Source: a virus
Taxonomy: Duplodnaviria > Caudoviricetes
DNA length: 34,528 bases
Strand: one strand, 5' to 3'
IMG/VR virus record: IMGVR_UViG_3300028030_000037
Location: 1-34,528 of that record
The position numbers and the translations under genes are program-made. Positions 3,271-32,236 of this stretch are shown in pieces. Numbering within the stretch: the stretch's first letter is position 1; every line of letters begins with the position of its first letter. The notes beneath the pieces are model-generated. The model saw only the letters and a list, made by a program, of their open reading frames with translations. It made no database searches and was not told the DNA's origin.

Positions 3271-4621
3271 TTGCCCAATACCAGAGATATTTTATGGAGG
3301 GGCAAGAGGAGGCGGGAAAACTGACGGCGTTCTAGGTAAATATGCCATAAAGGCAGAAACCTATGGCGAAGGATTTAACGCTATATTCTTTCGCAAAGAG
3401 TTACCAATGCTTGACGATGCCATAGAACGTAGTCGGTTTATTTTCGGATCAATTGGAGCAGTATGGCAAGACCAGAAAAAGACATGGCGGTTCCCCAGTG
3501 GTGGAAGGTTAAGGTTTAGACCATTAGAGAGGGTTCAAGATGCAGAAAAGTATCAAGGTCAGAATATTAGTGATGCGTGCGTTGAAGAAGCTGGCAACTA
3601 TCCTGACCCAGCGCCTATAGATAGGTTAAACGGTGTTTTAAGAAGTGTTTCAGGTGTCCCTACACAGTTAATAATGACAGGCAACCCCGGCGGGCCGGGG
3701 CAGAACTGGATAAGGTTAAGATATATAGACCCAGCACCACAAGGAATGAAGGTGCTAGAAAGAGCATTACCAAATGGTGAAGTACATAAATATGTATTTA
3801 TACCGTCGAAGCTAAAGAATAATAAGTTATTGGTGCAGCAAGACCCAGGATATGTAAACAGGCTGTATTTGGTAGGTTCAAAAGAGCTAGTGAAGGCATG
3901 GTTAGATGGTGACTGGAATGCAATTGAAGGTGCATATTTTGACTGCTGGTCTAAAGATATGGAGTTAAAGCCGTTTGAGATACCAGAACATTGGATGCGG
4001 TTTCGCTCATTTGATTGGGGAAGCGCAAAGCCATTTTCAGTTGGTTGGTGGGCGGTAGCTTCGGAAGACTATATCCACCCATCAGGCCGCATACCAAAGG
4101 GCGCTATGGTAAGATATCGTGAATGGTATGGGTCAAGTGGTCCTAACGTAGGATTAAAACTGACTGCTGAAAGTGTAGGAGCCGGAATAAAGGCAAAGGA
4201 ACACGGAGATAATATTAGCTATGGAGTTGCAGACCCGGCAATATTTACAAAGGATGGCGGGCCATCAATAGCTGACAGGATGGTTTTATATTGGCGTCAT
4301 GCTGATAACAAGCGCGTCGCGTCAAAAGGCCATGTAGGTGGATGGGATCAAATGAGGCAACGAATGCAAGGTGAAGACGGTAGGCCAATGATTTATTGCT
4401 TTACCACTTGTGTTGATTCAATTAGAACTATCCCAGTATTACAGCATGACGTTAACAAACCAGAAGATTTAGATTCAGACATGGAAGACCACGCAGCAGA
4501 TGAATGGCGTTATGCTTGCATGAGTAGGCCATATATCACAGAGAAGCCAGGCGAGAAAACCACGCCTAATGATTATGGTTTTGAAGACGATGATATTGAA
4601 GACGACTGGAAAACGGCATGA
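3203..4621 (+). CDS. terL: Terminase large subunit
   Basis: PQAGPQ, Walker A GGARGGGKT, Walker B-like CVEEA, TGNPGG coupling motif, nuclease DWG and EDHAADEWRY. Confidence 0.95.
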   Translation: MSGKENTEIIWRPQAGPQKALIDCPIPEIFYGGARGGGKTDGVLGKYAIKAETYGEGFNAIFFRKELPMLDDAIERSRFIFGSIGAVWQDQKKTWRFPSGGRLRFRPLERVQDAEKYQGQNISDACVEEAGNYPDPAPIDRLNGVLRSVSGVPTQLIMTGNPGGPGQNWIRLRYIDPAPQGMKVLERALPNGEVHKYVFIPSKLKNNKLLVQQDPGYVNRLYLVGSKELVKAWLDGDWNAIEGAYFDCWSKDMELKPFEIPEHWMRFRSFDWGSAKPFSVGWWAVASEDYIHPSGRIPKGAMVRYREWYGSSGPNVGLKLTAESVGAGIKAKEHGDNISYGVADPAIFTKDGGPSIADRMVLYWRHADNKRVASKGHVGGWDQMRQRMQGEDGRPMIYCFTTCVDSIRTIPVLQHDVNKPEDLDSDMEDHAADEWRYACMSRPYITEKPGEKTTPNDYGFEDDDIEDDWKTA

Positions 4622-19573: not shown

Positions 19574-19665
19574 TGGTAGTTGGGGCGAGACTCGAACTCG
19601 CATCAGCCGATTATCTGTCGTTACGGGTTATAAACCCGCTGCTCTACCAGTTAAGCTACCCAACC
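19574..19665 (-). tRNA. tRNA-Ile, anticodon UAU, long variable arm, encoded CCA
   Basis: Minus strand: acceptor GGTTGGG/CCCAACT-A-CCA, D arm GCTT..AGAGC, anticodon stem GCGGG-TTTATAA-CCCGT, T arm GCGAG-TTCGAGT-CTCGC. Confidence 0.85.
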
Positions 19666-19697: not shown

Positions 19698-19746
19698 ATA
19701 TAACAGGTCGATGAACCAGACGGAGCTGGCTATCTAGTTGTTAGAT
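19698..19746 (+). mobile_element. attC-like site (short, 49 bp)
   Basis: ATATAAC...GTTAGAT ends with an internal imperfect palindrome GATGAACCAG/CTGGCTATC. Confidence 0.65.
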
Positions 19747-19748
19747 TA

Positions 19749-20081
19749 CTAATCACGCCAATTATCACACCAACAATCAGGTGTTATCTCTTTTATGAAT
19801 TCAGTAGTGATATGCGTATGTATTACATCAGGTGATGATTCTTCCGATTCATCTGCAAAATAAATAAGTCTTACAGAATCTTTTTTACCATCTTCAATTA
19901 GCACCTTTTGTATGTCTTTATTAAAATCCTCAAGTGCTGAATATCTTTTTAACTCTGTATAACTAGCCCAGTAATCTCTATCGAAATCAATTAACCCATC
20001 ATATTTATCTGTAAACCATTTAGGCAATTCATCTTTCTTCATTACCATTGTGTCGCTTATTACTTGGTGTCTGTAACCCAT
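19749..20081 (-). CDS. Cassette-borne hypothetical protein
   Basis: 110 aa, AGGAG RBS, bounded by GTTAGAT (19740) and ACCTAAC (20109). Confidence 0.8.
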   Translation of the reverse strand: MGYRHQVISDTMVMKKDELPKWFTDKYDGLIDFDRDYWASYTELKRYSALEDFNKDIQKVLIEDGKKDSVRLIYFADESEESSPDVIHTHITTEFIKEITPDCWCDNWRD

Positions 20082-20108
20082 TTCATTCTCCTATAATTAT
20101 TAAAGTAA

Positions 20109-20154
20109 ACCTAACAATACGCGCAAGGCGCTATCGCTCGGACTCGCTGCGCTC
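20109..20154 (+). mobile_element. Truncated attC-like site
   Basis: From TAAC onward it matches the reverse complement of the 27787 site with one mismatch, but lacks the distal arm. Confidence 0.75.
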
Positions 20155-20365
20155 TAATCATTAAACCAAATAGTCCAAACACTCACTAACATAATCAGGC
20201 TGAAACGGTGTGGATTCCATCACATCAACCTTATGACCTATGTCAATTTGTATCCGAACCATAGAGAATAACAAACTTACAGCGATCAGTAAAAGCACTG
20301 TTACCGTTTTCGATGCTTGCGGTTCTTCCTCGCCTTCGTCTTTTCGTACTGTCTCCACGGGTGCA

Positions 20366-20524
20366 TCATCCAAAAATATAGCTGATGCCAAGACCTAGCA
20401 AGTAGATCATCACGCAGACTGGAACAAGGATTAGCGCTGAACGTGCAAACCATTCCCAGCGTTCAAGTTTTGCATCTTCAAACAGTTCGATTTGATCTTC
20501 GTCGATGTCTGTTGGTTGTTTCAT
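20366..20524 (-). CDS. Small membrane protein (52 aa, not in ORF track)
   Basis: MKQPTDIDEDQIELFEDAKLERWEWFARSALILVPVCVMIYLLGLGISYIFG; ATGA overlap with the upstream gene; GAGGTG RBS. Confidence 0.6.
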   Translation of the reverse strand: MKQPTDIDEDQIELFEDAKLERWEWFARSALILVPVCVMIYLLGLGISYIFG

Positions 20525-20730
20525 TTATCACCTCTATATTTCTTGTGTACTCGGATAACCTCATGTAGCATATCCCGAACCTTCATCATTCGAGCTGGAT
20601 CAGGGTTATGATACTTACCTTGCAGCATTTTCATAAACCAGCTAATAGGCACGCCGGATGCCTTAACGGTCATCGGATAGCTGTAGTTTGCTAACCGCAT
20701 CAAGCCTTTTAGTTCTTCTGGTGTAATCAT
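20521..20730 (-). CDS. Putative Cro/XRE-like HTH DNA-binding protein
   Basis: 69 aa with pattern LK.LM......V.ASGV..SWF.KM..G...NP. Confidence 0.55.
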   Translation of the reverse strand: MITPEELKGLMRLANYSYPMTVKASGVPISWFMKMLQGKYHNPDPARMMKVRDMLHEVIRVHKKYRGDK

Positions 20731-20750
20731 TGTTATTCCTTGTTTGGATT

Positions 20751-20800
20751 GTTTCTGTCTAATTCACCATCTAAAGATTCTGTCTAGTTAGATGTTATGT
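20751..20800 (+). mobile_element. attI-like site
   Basis: GTCTAGT-5 bp-GTTATGT simple site; TTCTGTCTA repeated directly at 20753 and 20778. Confidence 0.65.
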
Positions 20801-21031
20801 GTATTGCACTTTGCCGTTACCATTATCATCCAGAACGTAACGGAATGCGCCCCAGTTCATAGCCATCAATTCGCAGTCGTCATCAAATACCTCCAGGAAA
20901 TTTCGCAATTCTCCGACTGTTGCAGGATGTAGCAATTGGTGATCTGTGTGTATTGGATCACGCCTTTCGCAAATGCAATTAGAGCATCGATATTCGAATT
21001 CTTTATCATTTAATGGGCATTCATGTAACAT
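20795..21031 (-). CDS. Cassette-borne Cys-containing hypothetical protein
   Basis: 78 aa; stop lies in the att core; cassette ends GTTATGTGT/ACACATAAC are complementary. Confidence 0.8.
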   Translation of the reverse strand: MLHECPLNDKEFEYRCSNCICERRDPIHTDHQLLHPATVGELRNFLEVFDDDCELMAMNWGAFRYVLDDNGNGKVQYT

Positions 21032-21067
21032 ATTTCACCTATAAATTGTCGAGTAGTGATTTCAAAC

Positions 21068-21128
21068 ACATAACAATCAATTTCAACGGAGCGCAAAAAC
21101 CGCGCCCGCTGAATAATGGTCGTTATAA
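21068..21128 (+). mobile_element. attC-like site
   Basis: ACATAAC...GTTATAA with an internal hairpin (CGG-A-GCGC/GCGC-CCG). Confidence 0.8.
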
Positions 21129-21335
21129 TTTCAATAACCACAAATTAGCCATCCTTCGTCCAGCATTAGTTTTCTTCTGCTCGACCGGCTCAGACTCTTT
21201 CCCAACTCGCCATTGATCAATATAGCCTTTAAATATCTTGCTATGATCTGATGGGTTAAAGCGATTAAGCTGGTCATAGATAAATTCTCTATCTTCACGC
21301 TGTGGAAGCTTGTTTATGGCGTCTGTTAGGTTCAT
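21123..21335 (-). CDS. Hypothetical phage protein
   Basis: 70 aa coupled to ssb; C-terminal N.GRR.AN.WL motif. Confidence 0.75.
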   Translation of the reverse strand: MNLTDAINKLPQREDREFIYDQLNRFNPSDHSKIFKGYIDQWRVGKESEPVEQKKTNAGRRMANLWLLKL

Positions 21336-21772
21336 TAAAATGGTAGTTTGTCGAATCCTTCATTAGCAGGTGGCGCATCATTCTGGTTTTGAGCTGGCAC
21401 AGGTTCTTGCTGCTGATTTGTTTGACCGTTGTTTGACTGGCTACTACCGAGCATTTGCATTTCATGTGCAACAATCTGAGTTGAATAACGATCCTGTCCG
21501 TCTTGGCCTTGATATTTGTTTGTCTGAATCTTTCCCTCGAAGTAAGCTTGCTGTCCTTTCTTCAAATACTGAGCAGCAATCTCGCCTAACTTTCCGAACA
21601 TAACGACACGATGCCATTCAGTTTTCTCTACCTTTTCTCCAGTATTCTTGTCTTTCCATGATTCACTGGTCGCTATAGAGACTGTGCAAATAGCTGATCC
21701 ACTCGATGAATATTTAACGTCAGGGTCTTGCCCTAATGTTCCGACAATAATGGCCTTATTAACGCCTTTCAT
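21335..21772 (-). CDS. ssb: Single-stranded DNA-binding protein
   Basis: [31 protein letters not shown] and acidic tail DKLPF. Confidence 0.97.
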
Positions 21773-22168
21773 TTACATTAAACTCCTAATCTGTTTTTGA
21801 AGGTAATAAAATCTTTTTCTGTGCTGCAATAATTTATCTTGTTCTTTATCCGTCAACTTGCCTGCCTGCTCGTACATCATAATAATCCCATGCACTTCCT
21901 TTGCCTCGACTGATAGCTTTTCCAGTCTCCATTTGTCTTTGTCGAACTCTGACTGATTATCAAAGTACAGGTCTTTAACCTGCATCCCAACTGACAAACA
22001 AATGTCATCAATAGAGCAGCCAGCAAAGCAATGTAAACTAATCTTAACCTGGTTGGCAGAAATCATTAGCGAAGGTCGTCCATCTTCATGGGCTGGGCAT
22101 CTAGCCATGTACTTCCCGTTATGTAACTGTTTAACTTTTTCCAGCCGATCAAGGAAACTGTCGATCAT
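21773..22168 (-). CDS. Primase-type zinc-binding (CHC2-like) domain protein
   Basis: ARCPAHED..PSL...LHCFAGC; no catalytic domain follows; ATG at 22168 overlaps the upstream TGA. Confidence 0.8.
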   Translation of the reverse strand: MIDSFLDRLEKVKQLHNGKYMARCPAHEDGRPSLMISANQVKISLHCFAGCSIDDICLSVGMQVKDLYFDNQSEFDKDKWRLEKLSVEAKEVHGIIMMYEQAGKLTDKEQDKLLQHRKRFYYLQKQIRSLM

Positions 22169-22539
22169 ACCATCTTCCGTCCTATCCAAACATCAATCGG
22201 CGACAGCTTCACCTCTACCAGCTTAGGCCGTGACTTAGAATAATGCCTGCGCATCTTCATGCAATGAGGATCAACACAACTTACCCGACGATCATAGACA
22301 AACTGAGTCTCAAGCCGTCCATTGTCTTTACGCTGGCGCTCAATTCTCTTTCCGCATTCTGGGCAGTCTTTATAAACAAAGTTTCTTTCGGCTTCTGCAT
22401 CCAGATATGCCTGCCTGCAAGCGTTATCGCAGAACTTGCGGTTTTTGTAAATAATCGAGCTTTCTTTGCCGCCAGATGGAAATACTTTCCGAACTATCGG
22501 CTTGTCGCAGTTTAAGCAATTTCCTTGTTTGTCTGCCAT
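22165..22539 (-). CDS. Cys-rich zinc-finger repeat protein
   Basis: Two CxxCxK.I.R...R..C...C units. Confidence 0.7.
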   Translation of the reverse strand: MADKQGNCLNCDKPIVRKVFPSGGKESSIIYKNRKFCDNACRQAYLDAEAERNFVYKDCPECGKRIERQRKDNGRLETQFVYDRRVSCVDPHCMKMRRHYSKSRPKLVEVKLSPIDVWIGRKMV

Positions 22540-22589
22540 GTTTCTGTCTAATTCTTGATTTAAAGATTCGGCCTAGTCGGATGTTAGCC
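22540..22589 (+). mobile_element. attI-like site
   Basis: GTTTCTGTCTAATTC identical to 20751-20765; GCCTAGT-5 bp-GTTAGCC. Confidence 0.65.
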
Positions 22590-22623
22590 GCACATAGCTA
22601 AAACCTGTGCGGCGAAAAGAAAT

Positions 22624-22893
22624 TCAAAATAATAATTCATTAAGCCGTGAAATACGCTTACGGGCGTCTTCCGTTTTTTCCATAATAGCTCCGGCACCGC
22701 CATCTAGGATGTCTCTAAGAGTAGGAAGCGACTCTTTTTCTTTTGCGAATTCATGATCTGTTGGTGACGGCCCTTCGATTCTGTGTATTAGATCATCGAG
22801 TTGTTGTGAAATAGTGCCAATTTGTTGAATGGCATCATGTATTTCGATGTGTTTTTCTCTTCTTATTGCTTCGTTGCTAATTTGTTCAATCAT
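22624..22893 (-). CDS. Cassette-borne coiled-coil hypothetical protein
   Basis: 89 aa; cassette ends GTTAGCCGC/GCGGCTAAC. Confidence 0.8.
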   Translation of the reverse strand: MIEQISNEAIRREKHIEIHDAIQQIGTISQQLDDLIHRIEGPSPTDHEFAKEKESLPTLRDILDGGAGAIMEKTEDARKRISRLNELLF

Positions 22894-22919
22894 AATTATA
22901 CCTTTACTTTAATTGCAGC

Positions 22920-22988
22920 GGCTAACAAGTCATTTCACAGGACAGCGTTCCGCTGCGCTCCACTTGCCTGTAAATTCGGTCGTTAGCT
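22920..22988 (+). mobile_element. attC-like site
   Basis: GGCTAAC-AAGTC-ATTT[C]ACAGG...CCTGTAAAT-TCGGTC-GTTAGCT: 5/6-nt spacers and an unpaired base in L'' as in canonical attC. Confidence 0.88.
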
Positions 22989-23219
22989 AGTAATATCCCC
23001 AAAAGGTCTAAATATCTTATAGTGGCCTTTTTTATTTCTGGTTACTAATTTCTGTTTAACCATTTCTTTGCATACCGGAGAGCCAACTGAGCTGTGACCA
23101 CCATTTATTACCCGTCCAATCTCGGTTGGTGAAATCCAATCTCTACCCTCCCGCTGAGAAACACCATTCATGTATCGAATTGCTATATCTATTTTTTCTT
23201 GCATTTTCATTAAAATCAC
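22983..23219 (-). CDS. Cassette-borne winged-helix-like protein
   Basis: ISPTEIG...S.VCKEMV..KLVTR..KGHY; cassette ends GTTAGCTAG/CTAGCTAAC. Confidence 0.7.
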   Translation of the reverse strand: MILMKMQEKIDIAIRYMNGVSQREGRDWISPTEIGRVINGGHSSVGSPVCKEMVKQKLVTRNKKGHYKIFRPFGDITS

Positions 23220-23237
23220 CTATCTCGTTTAAATTCT

Positions 23238-23300
23238 AGCTAACAATACGCACCAGCGGAGCGCTAAAACCGCGCTCGCTGTTGTGCTCGGTCGTTATAC
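23238..23300 (+). mobile_element. attC-like site
   Basis: AGCTAAC-AATAC-GCACCAGCG...GTGC-TCGGTC-GTTATAC; homologous to the 27398 site. Confidence 0.85.
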
Positions 23301-23359
23301 ATTCAAAATACTCTCAACAATCTCCGGCACTTTAGCAACTACTCTATCATCCCGGTTGA

Positions 23360-24124
23360 TCATTTCTTACTTAAAATATCTGCCAGAATATTCTTGTATT
23401 GCCTTTTAGCACCTACTGGAATATCCGAGCCAAACATATTAATCACAGCAATATATTCATCGTTTGACAACCGCTTATACGCCTCATGGTACTTATCATA
23501 ATCTTCTGAATCAGAATCAATAAGACTTCTGAAATAAGCGTTGGCTTTTTGAATCTTTTTAACATCAAGCAACTCACCAGAAGTCTCACCAATAAGAATT
23601 GGTACTCTATTCCACTGAAACCGAACACGTCCGTTATAATCAGTTGCCTTAAGACTATCTAGTAAGCCGTCTTTAAAAGATGATTCCCAGCGCCACAAAT
23701 CAAGACGCAATTCCCATGATTGATGAAACTTGCCATTACGCTCTTGATACTCATTTTTGAACAATTTAACAGAGATTCGCGGGTAATCGTAAAGCTCAAG
23801 ACCGATCCCCCAGTTAAAACAGGCTCTCTTGAATGAATCGGATGCTAGACCTTTCTGAGCTTCAGCCATTGACTCTGTACCTGTATCCTCCTTAGAAACC
23901 CAATGCTTTCTATCTTCGTTCCAGATAGAAACTGTGCAATTGTGGTTATCCCTCGAATGCTCACGCTTCCATCCAAGTTGACCGCAAATATCATTAAGCC
24001 GATTAATGTCAACCCTGGCATCCTTGTACGCAAGGATAGTCGCATACCCGCCGTTATTGATAGACTGAATGCGGAAGTCTATTTGGTCGATTGTAAGCGG
24101 TTTAGTTAGATTCTTGATATCCAT
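23360..24124 (-). CDS. Rad52/Rad22-family (Sak-like) single-strand annealing protein
   Basis: AYKDARVD..RL, CTVSIW, WVSKEDTGTES and KG.ASDSFKRACFNWGIG motifs; likely start MDIKNL at 24124. Confidence 0.85.
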   Translation of the reverse strand: MDIKNLTKPLTIDQIDFRIQSINNGGYATILAYKDARVDINRLNDICGQLGWKREHSRDNHNCTVSIWNEDRKHWVSKEDTGTESMAEAQKGLASDSFKRACFNWGIGLELYDYPRISVKLFKNEYQERNGKFHQSWELRLDLWRWESSFKDGLLDSLKATDYNGRVRFQWNRVPILIGETSGELLDVKKIQKANAYFRSLIDSDSEDYDKYHEAYKRLSNDEYIAVINMFGSDIPVGAKRQYKNILADILSKK

Positions 24125-24205
24125 CTTCTTCCTCACTATACTCTGGTTCTGGTAACGCTTCGTCTGTTTCCGGTACATTCTCTAAGTACCACTCGCCCAT
24201 CTTGC

Positions 24206-24379
24206 TCACTTCTCACCTCGTCTATCGCGTCGATACGCTTCTACTTTTAGTTTGCACTGGTGGTTGTTCTTGCTGATCTCCACCATTCGATTATAAGCTG
24301 CTGTAAACTCAAGGTAATCATCGTCGATGATAACCATAGCTGGCAGCTTTACTATTCTCCATCTGTCGGGTCTGCTCAT
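24206..24379 (-). CDS. Small hypothetical protein (57 aa, not in ORF track)
   Basis: MSRPDRWRIVKLP...; AGGA RBS; fits the tightly packed leftward operon. Confidence 0.55.
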   Translation of the reverse strand: MSRPDRWRIVKLPAMVIIDDDYLEFTAAYNRMVEISKNNHQCKLKVEAYRRDRRGEK

Positions 24380-24384
24380 TGTTC

Positions 24385-24564
24385 CTACGCCTTAAACATA
24401 TCTATTAAAACATTGATAAACCCGTCGATCTTGTCTATCACGAAATCGCCGAAGCCTTTTTCTTGCCTTGTCTCAGGTATCATCATTTCTTCCTGCTTAC
24501 AATTCTTCTTATAATATTTAAGGTGCGCTATAGCTTCTTTTTCACTTAGTCCGAAGTTACACAT
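24385..24564 (-). CDS. Small hypothetical protein (59 aa, not in ORF track)
   Basis: MCNFGLSEKEAIAHLKYY...; same operon direction. Confidence 0.5.
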   Translation of the reverse strand: MCNFGLSEKEAIAHLKYYKKNCKQEEMMIPETRQEKGFGDFVIDKIDGFINVLIDMFKA

Positions 24565-24586
24565 TCTTTATATCTCGTTTAACATA

Positions 24587-24611
24587 GAATCTGTAGATAC
24601 CACTGTTAGCT
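24587..24611 (+). mobile_element. Weak attI-like site
   Basis: TCTGT-N9-TGTTAGCT, same spacing as the other attI-like sites, but no second repeat. Confidence 0.4.
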
Positions 24612-24902
24612 TTGTAAATCAGTTTCTTTTAAGTTCCTCACGATTTCAAGCATATTGCTAACATTCCGAATATTTTTTTCAGCCACCTCTATTGCTTTTT
24701 TATTATTGTCAAGTTTCTTTGTAAGCAATTCTACGAGCTTCATTCTCGCATCTTCAAAAATATCAAAATACCATTGCCAGTTTGTTTCTTTTCTTTCAGC
24801 TATTTTGTTTTTAAAATAAACTGTTTTTTCTGTTTCCCTTTCAACTTCTACCATTTTTATTTCATTTAAGTTAATAGTATTAACTTTATATTTCGTTATC
24901 AT
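24606..24902 (-). CDS. Probable cassette-borne hypothetical protein
   Basis: 98 aa, AT-rich, stop in the GTTAGCT core. Confidence 0.75.
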   Translation of the reverse strand: MITKYKVNTINLNEIKMVEVERETEKTVYFKNKIAERKETNWQWYFDIFEDARMKLVELLTKKLDNNKKAIEVAEKNIRNVSNMLEIVRNLKETDLQS

Positions 24903-24925
24903 TTCTTTTACCCTGTAAATTAAAG

Positions 24926-24965
24926 AGCTTCACTGCGTTACGCCTTTTTAATTCGGGCGTTAGCT
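24926..24965 (+). mobile_element. Truncated attC-like site (left arm lost)
   Basis: AGCT joined to ...CACTGCGTTACGCC...TTCGGGC-GTTAGCT. Confidence 0.55.
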
Positions 24966-25220
24966 GTCTTTAAACGATTCAATATGCTTGCCGAACTCAT
25001 GGCGTAACGTCTCTAACTGGCTGCGCTTAACCAGCCAATCCCTTACCCGTCCTGGTAGGCTTCTATAGCCTTTGTATGCTAGATTGCCGTCCATATATAA
25101 CCACACCGCTTCCATCTCAACATCATCGCCATCCATATAATATTCAACGGTAATTTGAGCATCGAAAGACTGGCCAAACACTTCAAAATCTTGATAGAAG
25201 TCGTAAGTATGGTAGATCAT
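24960..25220 (-). CDS. Hypothetical protein
   Basis: 86 aa, GGAGG RBS, ATGA coupling. Confidence 0.75.
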   Translation of the reverse strand: MIYHTYDFYQDFEVFGQSFDAQITVEYYMDGDDVEMEAVWLYMDGNLAYKGYRSLPGRVRDWLVKRSQLETLRHEFGKHIESFKDS

Positions 25221-25525
25221 TTTTCAACCTCCGATTTAAGAATCTTTTCTGCAATCTCTCGTGCAGCATCACTCAATGCGAGATCGAATTTGCTGGCCGC
25301 TTCGGAGTAGATAGCGCCATTGAAAGCCTGACGGGTGTATTCTTCCCATGCAGCAACACCTTCGTCGGATAGGTATCCAAGAACATCGTCCCATTTATAC
25401 CCTTTATATTCTTCGCCATTAGCAGTAGCTGTCAGAATATCATCCACCATACTGTTCAGATATTCTTCCTCTAGCTCTGCTTCCTTGCTATATCCACTGT
25501 CAGGGTCTTTTGTTGCGTTATACAT
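25217..25525 (-). CDS. Acidic hypothetical protein, first gene of the leftward operon
   Basis: Likely start MYNATKD at 25525 after GAGGTG. Confidence 0.75.
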   Translation of the reverse strand: MYNATKDPDSGYSKEAELEEEYLNSMVDDILTATANGEEYKGYKWDDVLGYLSDEGVAAWEEYTRQAFNGAIYSEAASKFDLALSDAAREIAEKILKSEVEK

Positions 25526-25554
25526 TTTGTCACCTCTTTTATTTAATTTATGGC

Positions 25555-25586
25555 TTGAAGTATACCACCAAAATGATATAATGCAA
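25555..25586. promoter_or_regulatory. Overlapping oppositely oriented sigma70-like promoters at the junction of the two early arms
   Basis: + strand TTGAAG-16-TATAAT with TG extension; - strand TTGCAT-16-TATACT with TG extension. Confidence 0.55.
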
Positions 25587-25710
25587 GACATAGAAACGAA
25601 AAATTATATAAAAATATTTGAGGTTAGAGATAATGCGCGTTAACATAAACCAACTTCGAGGCCGGCATCCGGTTTTCCAAGTCACCTCCTCACAGGATAT
25701 CCCCTGTATT

Positions 25711-25738
25711 CCCCTCCCGATTTTAGGAGGGGCTTTTT
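25711..25738 (+). terminator. Terminator-like hairpin containing the RBS of the next gene
   Basis: CCCCTCC-loop-GGAGGGG-CTTTTT immediately before ATG 25740. Confidence 0.65.
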
Positions 25739-25739
25739 A

Positions 25740-26033
25740 ATGCCTTCTCGCACCCCAAAACAAAACCGAGCATACTGGAAGTATCTGCGCTCTTTAGCGG
25801 ATGATCTGAATGATGCCGGTATCGACTTTAAAACGTCTGTACGACTTCCTGTGCGGTTTACTGCTGAGAACATGCACGAGTATATGTTCACGCCAGTTAT
25901 GCAGTCTTTATACCCTGAAAAGAAGTCAACGACTGAGCTATCAACTGTAGAGATGCAGGAAGTCTACGATACGTTTAATGCTGCTGTAGGTCAGCGGTTT
26001 GGAGTTAGCCGTAACTGGCCTAGTAATAGATAA
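25740..26033 (+). CDS. NinB/Orf-like recombination protein
   Basis: RT.KQN..YW and STT.LS..EM motifs. Confidence 0.65.
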   Translation: MPSRTPKQNRAYWKYLRSLADDLNDAGIDFKTSVRLPVRFTAENMHEYMFTPVMQSLYPEKKSTTELSTVEMQEVYDTFNAAVGQRFGVSRNWPSNR

Positions 26034-26101
26034 CGATTGAGCGTACTTGAAATTTATGGAGCGAAGCGGAATAAAATTTCCAGTAGCGCGACTTGTTAGC
26101 A
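26028..26101 (-). mobile_element. attC-like site
   Basis: Minus strand TGCTAAC-AAGTC-GCG[C]TACT...AGTACGC-TCAATC-GTTATCT. Confidence 0.85.
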
Positions 26102-26111
26102 AGATTTTAAT

Positions 26112-26359
26112 TTAGACGCTCTGCCGCTGCGGACACCGAAGATGGCAACACCGGCAACAGAGCTGAGCTGAGGGAAACAAGACGCGAAACCCATTGGATG
26201 CACAAGTAGCGATACGCGCCCGAATAGAACCGGGACTCCCGTTAGGCGGGGATAGCGAAAAATGCGGCAGGATGGGCAATTTGACTGTGACAGGTAATGC
26301 TGGCGACGAGCTTGACCGAATCAGAGGCGGTAACTAGGTTTACCGGGCAGAGCGTCTAA
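26112..26359 (+). ncRNA. Candidate structured ncRNA inside a cassette
   Basis: Perfect 14-bp inverted repeat TTAGACGCTCTGCC/GGCAGAGCGTCTAA around ~220 nt with no ORF of 60 aa or more; strand inferred from the operon. Confidence 0.5.
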
Positions 26360-26376
26360 CTTAGGAGAGAGCAAAT

Positions 26377-26517
26377 ATGAAAGAATTAGCCAAGAAAATA
26401 CTATGCTTGATTCGTCCACTAAAACCGTGCCGGGTTGATGATTGCTATGTGTACACTGCCCGCAGAGACAAAAACGGGCAGCCTTACTGCTCGGTTTGCA
26501 GAGATGAATCTTGCTAA
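26377..26517 (+). CDS. Small Cys-rich protein (46 aa, not in ORF track)
   Basis: AGGAG RBS; MKELAKKILCLIRPLKPCRVDDCYVY...YCSVCRDESC; stop in the att core. Confidence 0.7.
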   Translation: MKELAKKILCLIRPLKPCRVDDCYVYTARRDKNGQPYCSVCRDESC

Positions 26518-26599
26518 CTGACAGAGTTTAACGGGCGCATAGATATTGAGCTACGGAGCACGCTGGTTTAGCGCTCCGTTTTAGAACGCATTATTATAT
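26512..26599 (-). mobile_element. Degenerate attC-like site
   Basis: + strand TGCTAAC...ATTATAT (core G replaced by A); internal ACGGAGC/GCTCCGT stem. Confidence 0.6.
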
Positions 26600-26624
26600 T
26601 ACGATATTTTACGAGGAGTACAAA

Positions 26625-26843
26625 ATGAAAGATATTCTTACTGTTGTTTTTGGTGGTGTTGCGATTTCCGTACTAATAATCGCTCTGTTTTTAATTGGGC
26701 CTATTCTAGTTTTATGGGTGATCAACAGCCTTGCAGAGGCTGGCGGATTATCATTTTATATAGAGCACAATATGTGGAATTACTGGGTTGCTTTTATTCT
26801 ACTACTGTTAGTCAGGGGTGGCTCAAGTAGTAGCCGTAAGTAA
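26625..26843 (+). CDS. Cassette-borne small membrane protein (two hydrophobic helices)
   Basis: 72 aa, GAGGAG RBS. Confidence 0.8.
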   Translation: MKDILTVVFGGVAISVLIIALFLIGPILVLWVINSLAEAGGLSFYIEHNMWNYWVAFILLLLVRGGSSSSRK

Positions 26844-26914
26844 TATAACGCCAGAGCTGTGCTGACGACACGAAGCGCAGCGTAGTGGTGGTCAGAACGA
26901 GCGAATTGTTATAA
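26843..26914 (-). mobile_element. attC-like site
   Basis: Minus strand TTATAAC-AATTC-GCT[C]GTTC...GCACAGC-TCTGGC-GTTATAT. Confidence 0.85.
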
Positions 26915-26932
26915 CTACGTTTGGTAAGAATT

Positions 26933-27391
26933 ATGGGATATGCAGAAAATACAAGTGTAAGCACAGAAAAAAGTAGGGCTGAAATTGAACGAACTTTGCA
27001 GAGATACAATGCCGACCAGTTTATGTATGGCTGGGATGCGGATAAAGCTGTGGTGGGTTTTCGTATGGCCGGAAGACAGATTCGTTTCTTGCTGCCAATT
27101 CCAGACAAAGAAGATTGCCGGTTTACCCATACACCAACTGGCAAGGTACGAAAGCAGAACGCCGCATACAACGAATGGGAGCAAGCCTGCCGCCAAAAAT
27201 GGCGAGCACTGAGTCTTGTTATTAAAGCAAAACTGGAAGCTGTTGAAGCTGGTATTGCAATATTTGAAGATGAATTTATGGCAAACATCGTGCTACCGAA
27301 CGGTGATACAGTAAGCCAATTCATGCTGCCGCAGATCGCCGCAGCGTATGACCAGGGCGAAATGCCGAAGATGCTGCCAGATTTACGGTAG
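26933..27391 (+). CDS. Cassette-borne conserved phage hypothetical protein
   Basis: YA..T.VS..KS..EI...L and WRAL.L.IKAKLEAVE.GI..FE.EF motifs; cassette ends GTTATAACTAC/GTAGTTATAAC. Confidence 0.85.
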   Translation: MGYAENTSVSTEKSRAEIERTLQRYNADQFMYGWDADKAVVGFRMAGRQIRFLLPIPDKEDCRFTHTPTGKVRKQNAAYNEWEQACRQKWRALSLVIKAKLEAVEAGIAIFEDEFMANIVLPNGDTVSQFMLPQIAAAYDQGEMPKMLPDLR

Positions 27392-27397
27392 TAGTAG

Positions 27398-27457
27398 TTA
27401 TAACGACCCAGCACAGCGAGCGCGGTTTTAGCGCTCTGCTGGTACGTATTGTTATAA
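27398..27457 (-). mobile_element. attC-like site
   Basis: Minus strand TTATAAC-AATAC-GTAC[C]AGC...GCTGTGC-TGGGTC-GTTATAA. Confidence 0.85.
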
Positions 27458-27478
27458 CGATTTTAATTTGGAGAAACT

Positions 27479-27781
27479 ATGAGTTTATTTCAGTGTGAAA
27501 TCTGTGGATGTGTAGAGAATACAGCCACATCATCTCAAGGCTGTACAGGCGGAATGGAACGACTTTTCGACTGGACGGGCTTAGAAGATTTAAAAGGGAA
27601 AAAACTTTGTAGTGTTTGCGCGCCAAGAATTTATCGTGACGGTACGAGCACATGGTTTGGGAGGTGGCATGGAGAGTTTAAGCGAACGTTTTTACCGAAG
27701 GGAAAATTTAAAACAAACAGGCAAGGTAACCTTGAACACATTGAAACAGGTGAAACAGATTACAGAAAATATGCAATCTGA
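27479..27781 (+). CDS. Cassette-borne Cys-rich hypothetical protein
   Basis: MSLFQCEICGCVENTA...LCSVC...WH..F; cassette ends GTTATAACGA/TCGTTATAAC. Confidence 0.85.
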   Translation: MSLFQCEICGCVENTATSSQGCTGGMERLFDWTGLEDLKGKKLCSVCAPRIYRDGTSTWFGRWHGEFKRTFLPKGKFKTNRQGNLEHIETGETDYRKYAI

Positions 27782-27786
27782 TTTCG

Positions 27787-27856
27787 TTATAACGACCAGA
27801 GCGAAGCGGCGAGCGCAGCGAGTCCGAGCGATAGCGACTTGCGCGTATTGTTATGT
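27787..27856 (-). mobile_element. attC-like site
   Basis: Near-identical to 31299-31368; TAAC...GTTAT ends with GCG[C]AAG/CTTCGC arm. Confidence 0.85.
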
Positions 27857-27878
27857 GTATATTTTTGGAGATTAGGAA

Positions 27879-28148
27879 ATGACTAATTTTATTGGCTTAG
27901 TTTCTGAGTTAGCTGGACGCAATGACATATCAATGAAACCAGAAAAAGAGATTGATTTTGGAAATCTGAATATAGAAATGCTTGACAAACAAGCTCGCCG
28001 GTTAGCAGATAATGAAGTTTTCGTTTTTATTGATGGAGAAGAGTCAGAAAGTGACGAAATCACAGAAAAGCATGGCCTTGAAGAACTCAATAGAGTATTA
28101 AACAGAATTTTTGATGGTGAACTGTATGAAAAATTTTATTACACATAA
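27879..28148 (+). CDS. Cassette-borne acidic hypothetical protein
   Basis: 89 aa; cassette ends GTTATGTGTA/TACACATAAC. Confidence 0.8.
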   Translation: MTNFIGLVSELAGRNDISMKPEKEIDFGNLNIEMLDKQARRLADNEVFVFIDGEESESDEITEKHGLEELNRVLNRIFDGELYEKFYYT

Positions 28149-28192
28149 CATCTGGTTATACCGAATCACAAAATAGTGAAATAGACAGAAAC
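28143..28192 (-). mobile_element. attI-like site
   Basis: Minus strand GTTTCTGTCTA...GATTCG-GTATAAC-CAGAT-GTTATGT. Confidence 0.65.
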
Positions 28193-28211
28193 TACCTATC
28201 TAGGATATAAA

Positions 28212-28454
28212 ATGCCAAAATGGAACAAACCAGAAACAGCGCCTAGAAACGGCCATCTGGTCTTTGCCAACTTAGGATGGCCGTGGCCTATTACCGCCTG
28301 CTGGAACGAATACGAGCATAGATGGGTTTATGCTATGGCTCAGTTAAACATAGTGGATAGGCAGGAAGACCCATATTTTGAAAACGAGTATGCGGAAGAT
28401 AGCGAGCTATTGGGCTGGTTGCCGCTTCCAGATGTTAACGAGGTGAAGAAGTGA
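28212..28454 (+). CDS. DUF551-like phage protein
   Basis: W..PETAPRNG at the N-terminus and W.PLP at the C-terminus. Confidence 0.7.
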   Translation: MPKWNKPETAPRNGHLVFANLGWPWPITACWNEYEHRWVYAMAQLNIVDRQEDPYFENEYAEDSELLGWLPLPDVNEVKK

Positions 28455-28633
28455 GCATATTAGAACGATTAAATTATTATAATGGTCGTGTTCTTGAGCT
28501 AGATGTTTCTGTCGATAAAAAGACTGTTAATTTAATGGAGCAATGTGACCAATATTTTAGCGTCGATTTAACTAAAGAAGAATTTGGCAAACTGATAAAA
28601 GAACTAAATCAAATTTACGACAGCATGGAATAG
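28451..28633 (+). CDS. Hypothetical protein
   Basis: 60 aa, GTGA coupling, GAGGTG RBS. Confidence 0.7.
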   Translation: MSILERLNYYNGRVLELDVSVDKKTVNLMEQCDQYFSVDLTKEEFGKLIKELNQIYDSME

Positions 28634-28786
28634 AATGAAATATATCTGCTATCGCTGCCTACAGGTTATGGATATATCAGAACTTCGACCAGGTGCAAAG
28701 ATGAAAGGGCTTTCTGTAGAGTTAAGCAGAAAGATTAAAATGTGCAAGTCTTGCAAGTGCAGGACGTTTTATAAAATAGGTGATAT

Positions 28787-28978
28787 ATGAATGAAAATGA
28801 ACCGATCAGCATCCGACCAGTGGATAATGGGTTTATTGTTACAAAAATTTACGGTAATAGTAACGGTGAACTAATCTCTGACAAGAGTATTAAAGTTTTC
28901 AGGAGCATGAATGAGTTATGCAGATTTATTCAAGAACACTTTGAACATCGTGGGCTGTGTATTGAGAGTGACACATAA
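28787..28978 (+). CDS. Hypothetical protein
   Basis: 63 aa, I.I..V.NGFIV motif, AGGTG RBS. Confidence 0.75.
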   Translation: MNENEPISIRPVDNGFIVTKIYGNSNGELISDKSIKVFRSMNELCRFIQEHFEHRGLCIESDT

Positions 28979-29173
28979 ACATACCGCATAAAAAATAAAC
29001 CCCGACTTGATCGAAAAACCTAGTCGGGGTATTATTCAAGGGTCGGAGTTAGCAGCTCCTACAAAATCAGGTTTTAACGGAACCGATTCATAAGTTAAAT
29101 CTTATCAATCCCTCCAGAAAAATCAAGTTTTCTTATAGTTGCTGCTTTAATTTGTTACTTTTGTTAACACTTT

Positions 29174-29488
29174 CCGATTATCTCACTCTACCGCCAGCCG
29201 TCTAGCGAAAGCAAACCGGCAAAACATAGCCCAGGTTATGTGGATAAGAAGGGGCGGTCACATTGTCGCAACAATAGGCAATGGGGATAAACAGGCGTAA
29301 TGGTGATTTGGTGTTAATTGACTGCTGACCAGAACTCAAGCAGCACTGCAAACAAAGCAGATTAAAAAATAATCGGTCGCTTAGTAGCGAGAACGTCCGG
29401 CAAGACGGTGTAAACTGTGTCCTGATAAATAGAGTTAGATAACCAGTTGCATTGAATATGCAGGATTGGGTTTAGATCACCAAACCCT
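29174..29488 (+). ncRNA. Candidate structured non-coding element upstream of the HNH gene
   Basis: Nested stems CCGATTAT/ATAATCGG, ACCGCC/GGCGGT, ACATAGCC/GGTTATGT, TCGCT/AGCGA and GGGTTT/AAACCC in a 540-bp gap with no ORF. Confidence 0.4.
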
Positions 29489-29518
29489 TCAAGTGATTAG
29501 TATTGTCTGGAGAATTGT

Positions 29519-29983
29519 ATGAATAGAAAATTGATGCTTGCTAGAAGGTATTTCACAGCTTATCTGGATTTGAAGCCTAATGTATCCAACGCAGCAATGA
29601 TCCAGCAGCTTATATGTAAAGGGGTTATCCATGAATCAAAAACAAAGCGTAAATCTAGCAAAGTATTGATTGAGATTTACCGCGCATTAAGCAAAACACA
29701 TAAAATAGTGTTAAGCAAAAAGAAAGGATATGTTAAGCCATCTAGTGAATTTTACAGGTCTTCGCAATGGCGGAAATTACGGTACCAAGTTTTAAAGAAA
29801 TTTGATGGGTGCTGTTGTTTATGCGGGAGGTCAAAACGTGAGCATAATATTGTTATTCATGTAGATCATATTAAACCTAGGAGCAAGTATCCTGAGTTAG
29901 AATTAGAAGAAAGCAATCTCCAGCTTTTATGCGAGGATTGTAATTTAGGGAAGTCAAATCGGGATTCTATAGATTGGCGATAA
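29519..29983 (+). CDS. HNH endonuclease
   Basis: FY.S..WR.LR, CCLCG, HVDHIKP, NLQLLCEDCN.GK. Confidence 0.92.
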   Translation: MNRKLMLARRYFTAYLDLKPNVSNAAMIQQLICKGVIHESKTKRKSSKVLIEIYRALSKTHKIVLSKKKGYVKPSSEFYRSSQWRKLRYQVLKKFDGCCCLCGRSKREHNIVIHVDHIKPRSKYPELELEESNLQLLCEDCNLGKSNRDSIDWR

Positions 29984-30050
29984 TTGATAATCAGAGAGCG
30001 TTGCACTTCCTGCGGTAGATTAGACAAAAAGATAATTAAAGGTAAGTGGT

Positions 30051-30278
30051 ATGAACAAAATAACAGTTAAAATAAACGGTAAACTAAAAAAGTGTGACAA
30101 CCATTTTTCTGATCACAAAACCAGCTCTCAAGATATGCTTTCTGGTAATAAAATGGCGGATGAAATAGGAGATTTATATATTGATCATAGAATTAACTTG
30201 CCAGAAGTTCAATGGATGCAAGTTATGAAAGCGTTACGGATACATGGTTTTAAAATTACTTTTGTGAGGAACAAATGA
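30051..30278 (+). CDS. Hypothetical protein
   Basis: 75 aa in the operon direction. Confidence 0.65.
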   Translation: MNKITVKINGKLKKCDNHFSDHKTSSQDMLSGNKMADEIGDLYIDHRINLPEVQWMQVMKALRIHGFKITFVRNK

Positions 30279-30481
30279 GAAAATTAAAACAAGCAGGAAT
30301 TGCACTGGCCGAAGCTGCTGGCAGATATATTGGCGCTATAGCATACATTGATGATGTTCTTTACGATATCTATAAATACAGCCAAGAAGATTACGACAAA
30401 GCTGATAAAGAAGCAGATATAAGCAAAATAAATTTAATATCTGCAATCGAGAACTTTAACGAGGTATCTAGCAATGGCTGA
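30275..30481 (+). CDS. Hypothetical protein
   Basis: 68 aa, ATGA coupling, GAGG RBS. Confidence 0.7.
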   Translation: MRKLKQAGIALAEAAGRYIGAIAYIDDVLYDIYKYSQEDYDKADKEADISKINLISAIENFNEVSSNG

Positions 30482-30725
30482 TATAACAATGTGCAGCTCT
30501 CGGCTATGCCCAAGACGCGAGACTTGCTATCGGGTAAGTGCAAAGCATAGCTTATGGCAGGCATGGTCTGATTTCTTTCGGCCGGAATGTCAGTGCGATA
30601 TGTTTATCAAGGCAAAGGCTGAATGCGAGGAAACAGGCGTACACTGGCCGGTGTTTAATCCGACAGACAATCAAGACTATTGCGAGACGTGTGGGAAGCG
30701 GATGGTCGATATTAATGCTAAATAA
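30474..30725 (+). CDS. Cys-rich phage protein
   Basis: MADITMC....CP....CYR motif; stop in the att core. Confidence 0.75.
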   Translation: MADITMCSSRLCPRRETCYRVSAKHSLWQAWSDFFRPECQCDMFIKAKAECEETGVHWPVFNPTDNQDYCETCGKRMVDINAK

Positions 30726-30793
30726 CGATCAAGTGTCACCGGATTTCATGGAGCGCAGCGGAATGAAAATCCGTGTGTACGCGCTTGTTATGT
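30720..30793 (-). mobile_element. attC-like site
   Basis: AAATAAC...GTTATGT; shares the ATGGAGCG.AGCGGAAT core with the 26028 site. Confidence 0.8.
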
Positions 30794-30812
30794 TGTTTTT
30801 TGAAATTATCTC

Positions 30813-30850
30813 TTGAGTTATTAGTAACGCAGTGTATTATTACTAATAAC
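30813..30850 (+). promoter_or_regulatory. Cassette-internal promoter with operator-like inverted repeat
   Basis: TTGAGT-16-TATTAT overlapped by the perfect 11-bp inverted repeat GTTATTAGTAA/TTACTAATAAC. Confidence 0.6.
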
Positions 30851-30880
30851 AGTGATAAACACGCAAAAGGGGGTAAGGAA

Positions 30881-31147
30881 ATGTTTGAACAAGATTTTGA
30901 CAATATGTTTGCTGACGTTTGGTTTGATGAGCGTGATTGCGCATACGCCTATGAGGAAGGTATAGGTGAGTTTGATGCTGGGGCCAATACCATGCACTCC
31001 AATGATGCGGTTATCGCTGTTCGCAAGTATGACCGCGCCCTCCGTGGTACGCATTATGCAGGCAAGCGTAACCGCCTCCGCGCACAGCGGAATAGTTTGG
31101 TTACTGCCTTTGGGCCGGAAATGGTTGAGCGCGTTGGTTATGACTAA
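30881..31147 (+). CDS. Cassette-borne hypothetical protein (88 aa)
   Basis: Start MFEQDF after TAAGGA. Confidence 0.7.
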   Translation: MFEQDFDNMFADVWFDERDCAYAYEEGIGEFDAGANTMHSNDAVIAVRKYDRALRGTHYAGKRNRLRAQRNSLVTAFGPEMVERVGYD

Positions 31148-31304
31148 GCGAAAGACGGCAAGCACCAAAGATGGTGCTTGCCGTCAAGCGAAATTTAGAA
31201 AAGAACAAAAGAAACTTGGCAGGCGCGGAAGGCTGTATTACTTGACCGATGAGGAAAAAGAGATGGTGGATTCGTTTTTGTACAAGCTACGCGAATCGCC
31301 ATAA
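31140..31304 (+). CDS. Small basic putative DNA-binding protein (54 aa)
   Basis: MTKRKT...RQAKFR...GRRGRLYYLTDEEKEMV, RHH-like layout; stop in the att core. Confidence 0.6.
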   Translation: MTKRKTASTKDGACRQAKFRKEQKKLGRRGRLYYLTDEEKEMVDSFLYKLRESP

Positions 31305-31368
31305 CGACAAGAGCGAAGCGGCGAGCGCAGCGAGTCCGAGCGGTAGCGACTTGCGCGTATTGTTATGC
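31299..31368 (-). mobile_element. attC-like site
   Basis: Two internal mismatches relative to 27787-27856. Confidence 0.85.
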
Positions 31369-31393
31369 GTAATTTTTTACTTTAGAGGTAGAT

Positions 31394-31657
31394 ATGTGCA
31401 ACTGCAAAAACATGGCCGGCTACGGCGACGATAGCTGGGGAAAACACCACCACATAGCCTGCGAAAAATACGCCACAGAAAAGAACCCCTACCTGTTTTA
31501 TTACGAGGAAGGTGTTGAGGCATGGGTTCCCGTACCAGAAAAAACTGAACATTTAATTGTTGTCGACGATCAGCTAGATAATGATGAACGAATGCAACTT
31601 TATTTTAGACGAATAGACATGACCGACAAACAAATTGCAGAAATGCCTTGTGATTAA
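31394..31657 (+). CDS. Cassette-borne hypothetical protein
   Basis: 87 aa, GAGG RBS; cassette ends GTTATGCGT/ACACATAAC (8/9 complementary). Confidence 0.8.
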   Translation: MCNCKNMAGYGDDSWGKHHHIACEKYATEKNPYLFYYEEGVEAWVPVPEKTEHLIVVDDQLDNDERMQLYFRRIDMTDKQIAEMPCD

Positions 31658-31658
31658 C

Positions 31659-31683
31659 ACATAACATCTATTTAGACAGAAAT
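31659..31683 (-). mobile_element. attI-like site (single unit)
   Basis: Minus strand TTTCT-GTCTAAA-TAGAT-GTTATGT. Confidence 0.6.
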
Positions 31684-32236
31684 GCAAAAGCTGAAAACCT
31701 GTAGACTCTGCAAGTCGAAGTTCCGGCAGTTCAGCTCTATGGTTCCTGTGTGTTTGGACTGTGCGCCTGCTTATGCTTTGGAGAAAGCGAAGAAGAAGCG
31801 GAAGGCGAAACAGGTAGAAAAGAAGCGTGCGACTAAGCTCAATGATAGAGCATATCTTGTTAAAAGAGCACAATTCTACTGTAATAAATGGGTAAGATTG
31901 CGTGATGAAGGCAAGTCGTGTGTTTCATGTGGAACAACAGACGCCAAGTTCCATGCAGGACATTACAGGCCAACGTCAAGCAGCCCAGAACATAGGTTCA
32001 ATGAGTACAATCTTGCAGCGCAATGCCCACAATGCAATCTGTTTAAATCTGGGAATTTAACCGAGTATCGAAAGGAACTGATTAACCGGATCGGGCTTCA
32101 GCATGTAGAGCATCTTGAAAGCAAAACACCAACACAGAAGCTGGATTGTGCCGATTTGTTGGAGATAATCGAATATTACAAAGGGAAGATTAAGGCAAAA
32201 GAAAACCCGCTAGACCATAAAGGAAAGGCGGGCTAA
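31682..32236 (+). CDS. ninG: NinG/Rap-family endonuclease
   Basis: CRLC..C..C, N.WVRLRD...CVSCG, AGHYR, RF.E.N...QC..CN...SGN..EYR..LI.RIG. Confidence 0.9.
   Translation: MQKLKTCRLCKSKFRQFSSMVPVCLDCAPAYALEKAKKKRKAKQVEKKRATKLNDRAYLVKRAQFYCNKWVRLRDEGKSCVSCGTTDAKFHAGHYRPTSSSPEHRFNEYNLAAQCPQCNLFKSGNLTEYRKELINRIGLQHVEHLESKTPTQKLDCADLLEIIEYYKGKIKAKENPLDHKGKAG

Follow-up and report, generated by a model that had tools for sequence, protein, structure and literature searches.

The window analysed here, the whole 34,528-nucleotide virus record IMGVR_UViG_3300028030_000037 of IMG/VR, is a complete circular phage contig (its ends overlap by 121 nt) that carries six small integron-type arrays, and the genes of these arrays are encoded on the bottom (recombinogenic) strand of the attC sites, inverted relative to the cassettes of bacterial integrons. 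Our preferred reading, to which we give a probability of about 0.72, is that the arrays are likely shuffled by a borrowed integron integrase (IntI) and that their genes are likely read through from the two early operons of the phage. The contig encodes a terminase, portal, capsid, endolysin, helicase, single-stranded DNA-binding protein, primase-like protein, Erf-like protein and NinG. The early operons diverge from about 25.6 kb, leftward on the - strand and rightward on the + strand, and both sequencing runs with matching DNA are hydrothermal-vent metagenomes, one of which, X1, may be the source.

We count 13 attC-type sites (nine intact; Z, A, F and H damaged), five attI-like sites (I2 to I6), 12 cassettes (c1 to c12) and 13 cassette open reading frames (ORFs). 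The sequence-only reading had drawn one cassette array across 19740..31665; there are instead six small, separate arrays, spread over both arms. Read along the top strand, the left arm has Z, c1, half-site A and three genes; I2, c2, B and replication genes; I3, c3, C, c4, D and the Erf block; and I4, c5, F and two genes. The right arm mirrors this, with I5, c6, K, c7, J, c8, I, c9, H, c10, G, and then I6, c11, M, c12, L. With no intI next to them, these clusters of attC sites are what is called a CALIN (cluster of attC sites lacking an integron integrase), and the intI beside the array that marks a complete integron is absent from the phage contig. The features are as follows, with scores from the covariance model (CM) and weight matrix described below; the strand of a site is that of its top strand.

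19698..19746, + strand: attC Z, shortened to 49 bp; c1 opens at its core G|TTAGAT (19740) (CM 21.2 versus 9.6 bits; matrix 23.2 versus 8.9)
19749..20081, - strand: c1 ORF, 110 aa, inverted (from the ORF list; missing here in one relative)
20109..20155, + strand: attC A, a half site without its right arm and so likely immobile (94% complementary to K)
20751..20800, + strand: attI-like I2, core G|TTATGT at 20794 (shared I-site pattern)
20795..21031, - strand: c2 ORF, 78 aa, stop in core (9-nt core/R'' match)
21068..21128, + strand: attC B (CM 28 bits)
22540..22589, + strand: attI-like I3, core at 22583 (I-site pattern; a relative's contig diverges at 22591)
22624..22893, - strand: c3 ORF, 89 aa (9-nt core/R'' match)
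22920..22988, + strand: attC C (CM 41.3 bits)
22983..23219, - strand: c4 ORF, 78 aa, stop in core (ORF list, core/R'' comparison)
23238..23300, + strand: attC D (CM 27.3 bits)
24562..24611, + strand: attI-like I4, degenerate, core at 24605 (a relative swaps the cassette exactly here)
24606..24902, - strand: c5 ORF, 98 aa, stop in core (334 other bases instead in a relative)
24906..24965, + strand: attC F, R'' destroyed, strand undecided by the matrix (a relative's match resumes at 24958)
26028..26101, - strand: attC G (CM 21 bits)
26377..26517, + strand: c10 ORF, 46 aa, stop in core (12-nt core/R'' match)
26512..26599, - strand: attC H, 88 bp, with AAT in place of AAC in its mutated R'' (relatives carry H with other neighbours; loose ends 26520, 26600)
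26625..26843, + strand: c9 ORF, 72 aa, hydrophobic (ORF list)
26843..26914, - strand: attC I (CM 46.2 bits)
26921..27391, + strand: c8 ORF, likely start 26933 (phrog_17260; inverted cassette also in L405 and L409)
27398..27457, - strand: attC J (CM 26.4 bits)
27479..27781, + strand: c7 ORF, 100 aa (phrog_11861; inverted cassette also in L065)
27787..27856, - strand: attC K (CM 15.7 bits; matrix 20.2 versus 15.4)
27879..28148, + strand: c6 ORF, 89 aa, stop in core (ORF list, core/R'' comparison)
28143..28192, - strand: attI-like I5, core at 28149, heads the five-cassette array (I-site pattern)
30720..30793, - strand: attC L (matrix 19.0 versus 4.0; CM weak, 9.1 bits)
30881..31304, + strand: c12, two ORFs, 30881-31147 and 31140-31304, the second with its stop in the core (ORF list)
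31299..31368, - strand: attC M, 92% identical to K (CM match)
31394..31657, + strand: c11 ORF, 87 aa (homologue without attC in viral locus L160)
31659..31686, - strand: attI-like I6, short form, core at 31665, abuts the ninG start (I-site pattern)

All nine intact sites have full attC anatomy, with R''/R' cores, L''/L' boxes, an extrahelical base and a foldable bottom strand. Adjacent attCs are mostly unlike in sequence (mean column identity 59%), and A/K/M and B/D/J form two near-identical families. On the coding strand each cassette reads attC hairpin, ribosome-binding site (RBS), gene and stop at the next core, and most cassette ORFs have an RBS-like motif shortly after the attC. The stops at 20795, 22983, 24606, 26515, 28146 and 31302 all lie within the complement of the R' core, exactly where they had been placed earlier; in the remaining six cassettes the stop falls 6-41 bp from the core, and core-embedded stops also occur in five backbone genes. 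PHROG matches support c7 and c8 as genes, and the other ORFs are predicted from length, RBS-like motifs and operon direction. Position 19740, previously taken for an attI-like site, belongs to the shortened attC Z, so c1 does not start at an attI; a relative carries about 18-20 extra bases at this position, and a search for a left-hand core of Z found none.

To assign the top strand, we used 40 stretches beside intI from bacteria of one class, that of the bacterial genome bin in which the phage contig was placed. Hairpins were detected blind to strand, and the top strand was then defined as the one pointing away from intI. From these came a covariance model of 39 short bacterial attCs and a weight matrix of 107 bacterial sites, which assigned 102 of the 107 correctly when each locus was left out in turn. 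The bacterial covariance model replaced one built from the window's own sites, which had no base pairs and matched those sites only. It matched ten window sites best on one strand each, four on + in the left arm and six on - in the right (46 to 9 bits; weakest E 4.9), and only two sites matched on the opposite strand as well, both with lower scores (11.7 versus 28 and 9.6 versus 21.2). The weight matrix agrees at all nine intact sites, with margins of about 5-26 bits. As a control for chance, the window gave 10 hits and 20 shuffles gave 0-2. At 11 of 11 sites the assigned top strand is C-rich and folds less well, a published trait of top strands (Nivina et al., 2016, PMC5027507) that holds for 87 (skew) and 90 (folding) of the 107 bacterial sites. 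Extra-base geometry favours the assigned strand at eight of 11 sites, with two ties and one worse, and damaged site H agrees with the right-arm strand after correction of its boundary. Half-site A takes its strand from its complementarity to K. All 13 cassette ORFs lie on the bottom strand, whereas a canonical cassette has its ORF on the top strand, ending at R''. The claim of the sequence-only reading that the top strand is + in the left arm and - in the right, with every cassette ORF inverted, is thus confirmed by the covariance-model and extrahelical-base analysis that it had itself proposed.

The same polarity prevails in other phages. With one simple gene caller used throughout, bacterial arrays gave 116 canonical, five inverted and 16 uncalled sites (137 in total). 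For viruses, a top-strand pattern taken from the window without gene information was scanned against IMG/VR; the 80 loci among the matches listed gave 111 inverted, six canonical and 40 uncalled sites (157 in total), or 38 inverted against three canonical among the 41 loci called. The proposed tabulation of attC strand against ORF strand across many phages thus came out predominantly inverted in viral contigs and canonical in bacterial arrays. Relatives of two backbone genes were also surveyed: none of 11 NinG loci has attCs, and two of 49 Erf loci do, besides the window's own contig. Locus L065 holds one canonical cassette (4521-4814), antisense to its neighbours inside an otherwise inverted phage array, whose product we take, reading by eye, to be WYL-like. 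The other sites of the bin (G000) comprise six canonical and four inverted ones, two of the latter on a phage-like contig. Among its contigs, C635 (4.7 kb, 52% GC) is phage-like and has phage-type genes in inverted orientation beside two or three attCs, and C107 has two attC-like sites that face each other around one gene (663-1310) and a reversed gene pair resembling a toxin-antitoxin module.

Are these cassettes mobile units? An integron cassette is a unit that lies between G|TT crossovers and moves as a whole, and the cassettes here answer to this. In seven of the 12, core and R'' are perfectly complementary over 9-12 nt, as former circles should be. Further evidence comes from the covered parts of related phage contigs, mostly 90-99% alike, from run X2, another study's hydrothermal-vent metagenome. 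In one relative c5 is replaced: the sequence matches up to the core at 24608, continues with 334 other bases and resumes at 24958. In another contig c1 and A are missing, with a joint from 19743 to 20170; one relative has a K/M-type attC in place of G, and attC H occurs with different neighbours. Joints 21121-19740 and 20099-23240, at first taken as relocation of c1, may mean no more than that c1 is flanked by different attCs in an unchanged slot. At 20802 and 20805 there are opposite-strand joints whose length does not allow a reading. An explanation that we consider unlikely is that the arrays are fossils, former IntI substrates whose main role now is as RNA hairpins or as repeats on which NinG and the phage's Erf-like annealing protein act, with cassette variation arising by homologous recombination. 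The lack of an integrase, the four damaged sites, the near-identical attC families and the Erf-like and NinG genes all fit this idea. However, the c5 replacement shares only about 4-5 bases per side at G|TT, too little for homology-driven exchange, and nine sites retain full anatomy while most neighbouring attCs differ from one another.

Phages with their own IntI, which the sequence-only reading had missed, show the same layout. Seven viral or prophage loci have an IntI-like gene (L127, L142, L146, L179, L129, L145 and L409); all six full-length proteins tested pass the TIGR02249 cut-off, and five aligned ones keep the integron-specific insert. A larger viral set, the best 80 of 559 matches to an alignment whose query favours relatives of inverted-array integrases, gave 78 inverted, 16 canonical and 46 uncalled ORFs at 140 sites, or by locus 34 inverted, five canonical, one tie and 40 uncalled. 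Upstream of intI in this set, 135 of 135 attCs point away from intI, the usual geometry. A quickly built tree of 86 proteins places 35 of 37 inverted-array integrases in two groups (SH-aLRT, an approximate likelihood-ratio branch test, 95 and 99); each phage-rich group holds one canonical viral row, and the bacterial rows come from one class only. In the seven loci and in 34 of L450-L529, an attI-like core lies immediately upstream of an IntI-like gene and the inverted cassettes run the same way as intI; these are apparently complete phage integrons. In several other phages (L127, L146, L179 and others) a predicted ORF overlaps or starts inside the attC; in the window, starts lie after the site.

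Integrase-mediated insertion at secondary sites (attG) is known, and inverted polarity might then reflect a filter rather than an adaptation, with insertion in either direction at GTT sites of phages, survival only where the attC leaves the operon unblocked or the gene is expressed, and no dedicated pool or docking site. Many c7 and c8 homologues lack attCs and the L065 array includes a canonical cassette, as such a filter would have it. Yet the attCs of one arm share a direction and stack behind a repeated 50-bp site, and complete phage integrons with intI and attI are inverted too. Moreover, the inversion is of gene against attC within the cassette, so the direction of insertion cannot alter it, and we rate the filter somewhat below even the fossil arrays.

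Polarity could also be canonical after all, the supposed top strand being the one recombined. Both strands of a site begin TAAC and end GTTA, the stops lie in TAAC as in ordinary cassettes, and low-rate top-strand recombination is possible (PMC5027507). Every strand test nonetheless pointed one way, with attI-like sites and intI anchoring the same direction. Experimental evidence comes from Qi et al. (2023, PMC9892861), who found five of six phage sites to recombine with IntI1, bottom strands above top. Their PH101 sites attC1/2 map to 75919-75976 and 76529-76585, and the Forward-oligo strand is the - strand, on which all flanking annotated genes lie. If that strand is the bottom one, as we take it to be by analogy with the aadA7 control, the assayed array would be inverted, and these sites of like polarity recombined better on the coding strand. 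The ctTUS972 array and P12002L attC1 are likewise inverted (the latter did not recombine; PMC9892861), and our models detected no site in the first 40 kb of 3/49 and of jenny 12G5 or in the first 50 kb of H188, all three listed in Qi Table S1. Canonical polarity, the case that would have overturned the earlier claim, is therefore largely refuted by matrix, covariance model, intI-anchored viral loci and PH101 assay strand, and we think it highly improbable.

The sequence-only reading had also proposed a phage-adapted cassette pool, with homologues to be sought in phages and in bacterial arrays. PHROG matched c7 and c8 among the cassette ORFs; ten others tested had no match (c10 lay outside the scan), and in Pfam none of 25 small proteins, cassette ORFs included, matched above cut-off. 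The c7 matches come from 39 phage and five plasmid records. Relatives of c8 in L405 (83%) and L409 (85%) and of c7 in L065 (61%) are themselves inverted cassettes with different attCs. When 117 viral cassette proteins, the 13 of the window and 111 bacterial ones were compared, there were six viral-viral homologue pairs, one bacterial-bacterial and none across. Viral inverted cassettes encode shorter proteins (median 89 aa, versus 148 aa in bacteria), and those of other phages include DNA methyltransferases and a Lar-like protein. The recurrence of c7 and c8 families and the six pairs against none thus support, in small numbers, what by sequence would be a phage-adapted pool; a separation of the viral and bacterial pools is unproven, the PHROG rates being nearly equal and most c7 and c8 homologues being ordinary genes of phages that lack attCs. 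Rare reversed host cassettes, or a captured fragment of a host integron, might be invoked given the three IntI genes of the bin and the inverted minority elsewhere (5 of the 121 bacterial cassettes called, 4 of the 10 other bin sites), but this least probable explanation is opposed by 12 of 12 inverted cassettes interleaved with replication genes, the phage families of c7 and c8, the lack of homologues among 111 bacterial cassette proteins and the phage-like contig that carries two of the bin's four inverted sites.

Five of the six arrays are headed by an attI-like site just upstream of the next backbone gene block. These sites are non-palindromic: I2, I3 and I5 share about 50 bp, I6 has the last 28, and I4 is degenerate. 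The I sites show an L-box motif and a core, with a spacer of 5 bp, and a single 20-nt pattern describes I2, I3, I5 and I6 with no more than one mismatch. The L-box motif occurs in 12 of 20 bacterial attI sites and, in the window, at nine of 208 GTTA(G/T) positions, including I2, I3, I5 and I6. The pattern matched 5 of 400 other genomes, at loci without attC or integrase, and a viral scan for the motif returned noise (0 of 80 loci with attC). A 14-bp piece at 26518-26531, considered as an attI remnant, proved to be the right arm of attC H.

We propose the following for the enzyme and its source, attI function, expression and selective advantage. An IntI acting in trans, from the host or a co-infecting phage, would excise and insert units by normal bottom-strand chemistry, each unit reading G|TT, reversed gene and attC along the top strand. 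A new cassette would dock at an attI-like site and join the operon; because these sites lie just upstream of backbone blocks, it would land in the operon without cutting a gene. RBS-like motifs after the attCs and the lack of promoter excess make read-through the simplest route of expression, and operon read-through is a reasonable expectation. A cassette promoter (Pc) would lie antisense to the cassette genes, and because the I sites are oriented opposite to transcription, a cassette would be read only if its ORF is reversed. From this geometry it follows, reasonably, that a host-type cassette entering an I site would be antisense and silent, as would a phage cassette under a host Pc. The cassettes would probably be built from phage genes and exchanged among phages.

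Several observations weigh against this account. Damage affects 4 of 13 sites, and each swap joint rests on a single contig of one run. No tyrosine recombinase lies on the phage contig (0 of 13 bin matches fall there); the bin, which encodes three IntI above the TIGR02249 cut-off, is unsupported as the host, with no spacer match and the contig a composition outlier. None of the 400 genomes searched has a bacterial attI fitting the I-site pattern, and a promoter-like consensus scan found no excess (24 versus 34 expected) and is uninformative. Canonical polarity occurs in 5 of the 40 called viral IntI loci (best 80 of 559) and in the TJE1 array. Among the 64 c8 and 6 c7 loci, no others have a directly flanking attC at the thresholds used, and PHROG rates of 6/40 and 4/40 do not separate viral from bacterial pools.

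Some further features of the phage and the bin can be noted here. The Rfam search of the window returned a single match, a tRNA; a tRNA-Ile gene (TAT anticodon, extra insertion, 92 nt; 19574-19665, - strand) adjoins Z, which has no left-hand core, and may once have been cassette cargo. In c10, about 275 non-coding bases (26102-26376) precede the ORF, with a long closing stem beside the RBS; their fold z-score is -2.24 (7 of 200 shuffles as good), with no Rfam match. The second c12 ORF contains a 14-bp perfect hairpin (31154-31185), terminator-like on the - strand. A 540-bp gene-free stretch with several hairpins (28980-29518) precedes an HNH gene and is a possible origin or regulatory region. 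In the bin, the IntI frame at C130:9360-10859 is about 500 aa, with a long N-terminal extension, and a similar split form occurs on C94. A tailspike-like gene (window 16468-17435) shares segments with the phage-like bin contig C103, which suggests a common host.

How does this system compare with known ones? Like the phage-borne CALINs of Qi et al. (2023, PMC9892861), it consists of attC clusters without integrase, which they describe in virulent phages, but it differs from them in its several attI-like sites and mirror-image arrays. The accessible part of that report describes PH101 and TJE1 as typical and makes no statement that the ORFs are antisense to their attCs; in our analysis PH101 and ctTUS972 are inverted and TJE1 is canonical. 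With canonical integrons (Cury et al., 2016, PMC4889954; PMC5027507) it shares attC anatomy, the G|TT crossover, attI-like-headed arrays and bottom-strand skew; it departs from them in its bottom-strand genes directed toward attI, the absence of intI, no expected Pc and six arrays per replicon. The inverted-integrase integrons of Treponema and others (PMC4889954) resemble the IntI-bearing phages in having intI and cassette genes co-directional; there it is intI that is flipped relative to attC, whereas in the phages the ORFs alone are flipped, with intI, attI and attC arranged in the usual way. In Delta-attI-type cassettes (PMC12901181), too, attI-derived sites occur within arrays, but these are class 1/2 resistance cassettes in normal orientation. 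In the open literature, the figures of Qi et al. excepted, our search turned up phage CALINs but no account of a systematic inversion of ORFs or of IntI lineages belonging to phages. The contribution of this genome is its multi-slot mirror-image layout, with evidence of swaps at two slots.

A broader reading, on which we are evenly divided, is that phages run a mirror-image integron system of their own. Complete forms would have a phage IntI co-transcribed with the cassettes, and dependent forms docking sites (here five, in both early operons) and a borrowed enzyme. Polarity would act as a self/non-self lock, with host cassettes, often anti-phage, silent in the phage and phage cassettes silent in the host, and ordinary phage genes would be converted into cassettes. 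Integrons have been treated as bacterial devices, with cassette orientation fixed by the choice of attC strand, and have lately been viewed as anti-phage gene stores (bioRxiv 10.1101/2024.07.02.601686). One gene family can be found as a plain gene of phages and also, with different attCs, as an inverted cassette; this bears on the question of how cassettes form, and the reversed ORF constrains models that add attC after the stop codon; if ordinary phage genes become cassettes, the formation of new ones would be observable. With inverted polarity, the mobile accessory genes of phages can be delimited precisely, and the cultured phage PH101 makes the idea of inverted cassettes testable. The phage described here likely swaps small accessory genes from a phage-specific pool using a borrowed integrase, and if a widespread pool of opposite polarity exists, phages would be using integron machinery for accessory genes of their own, some of them likely directed at counter-defence.

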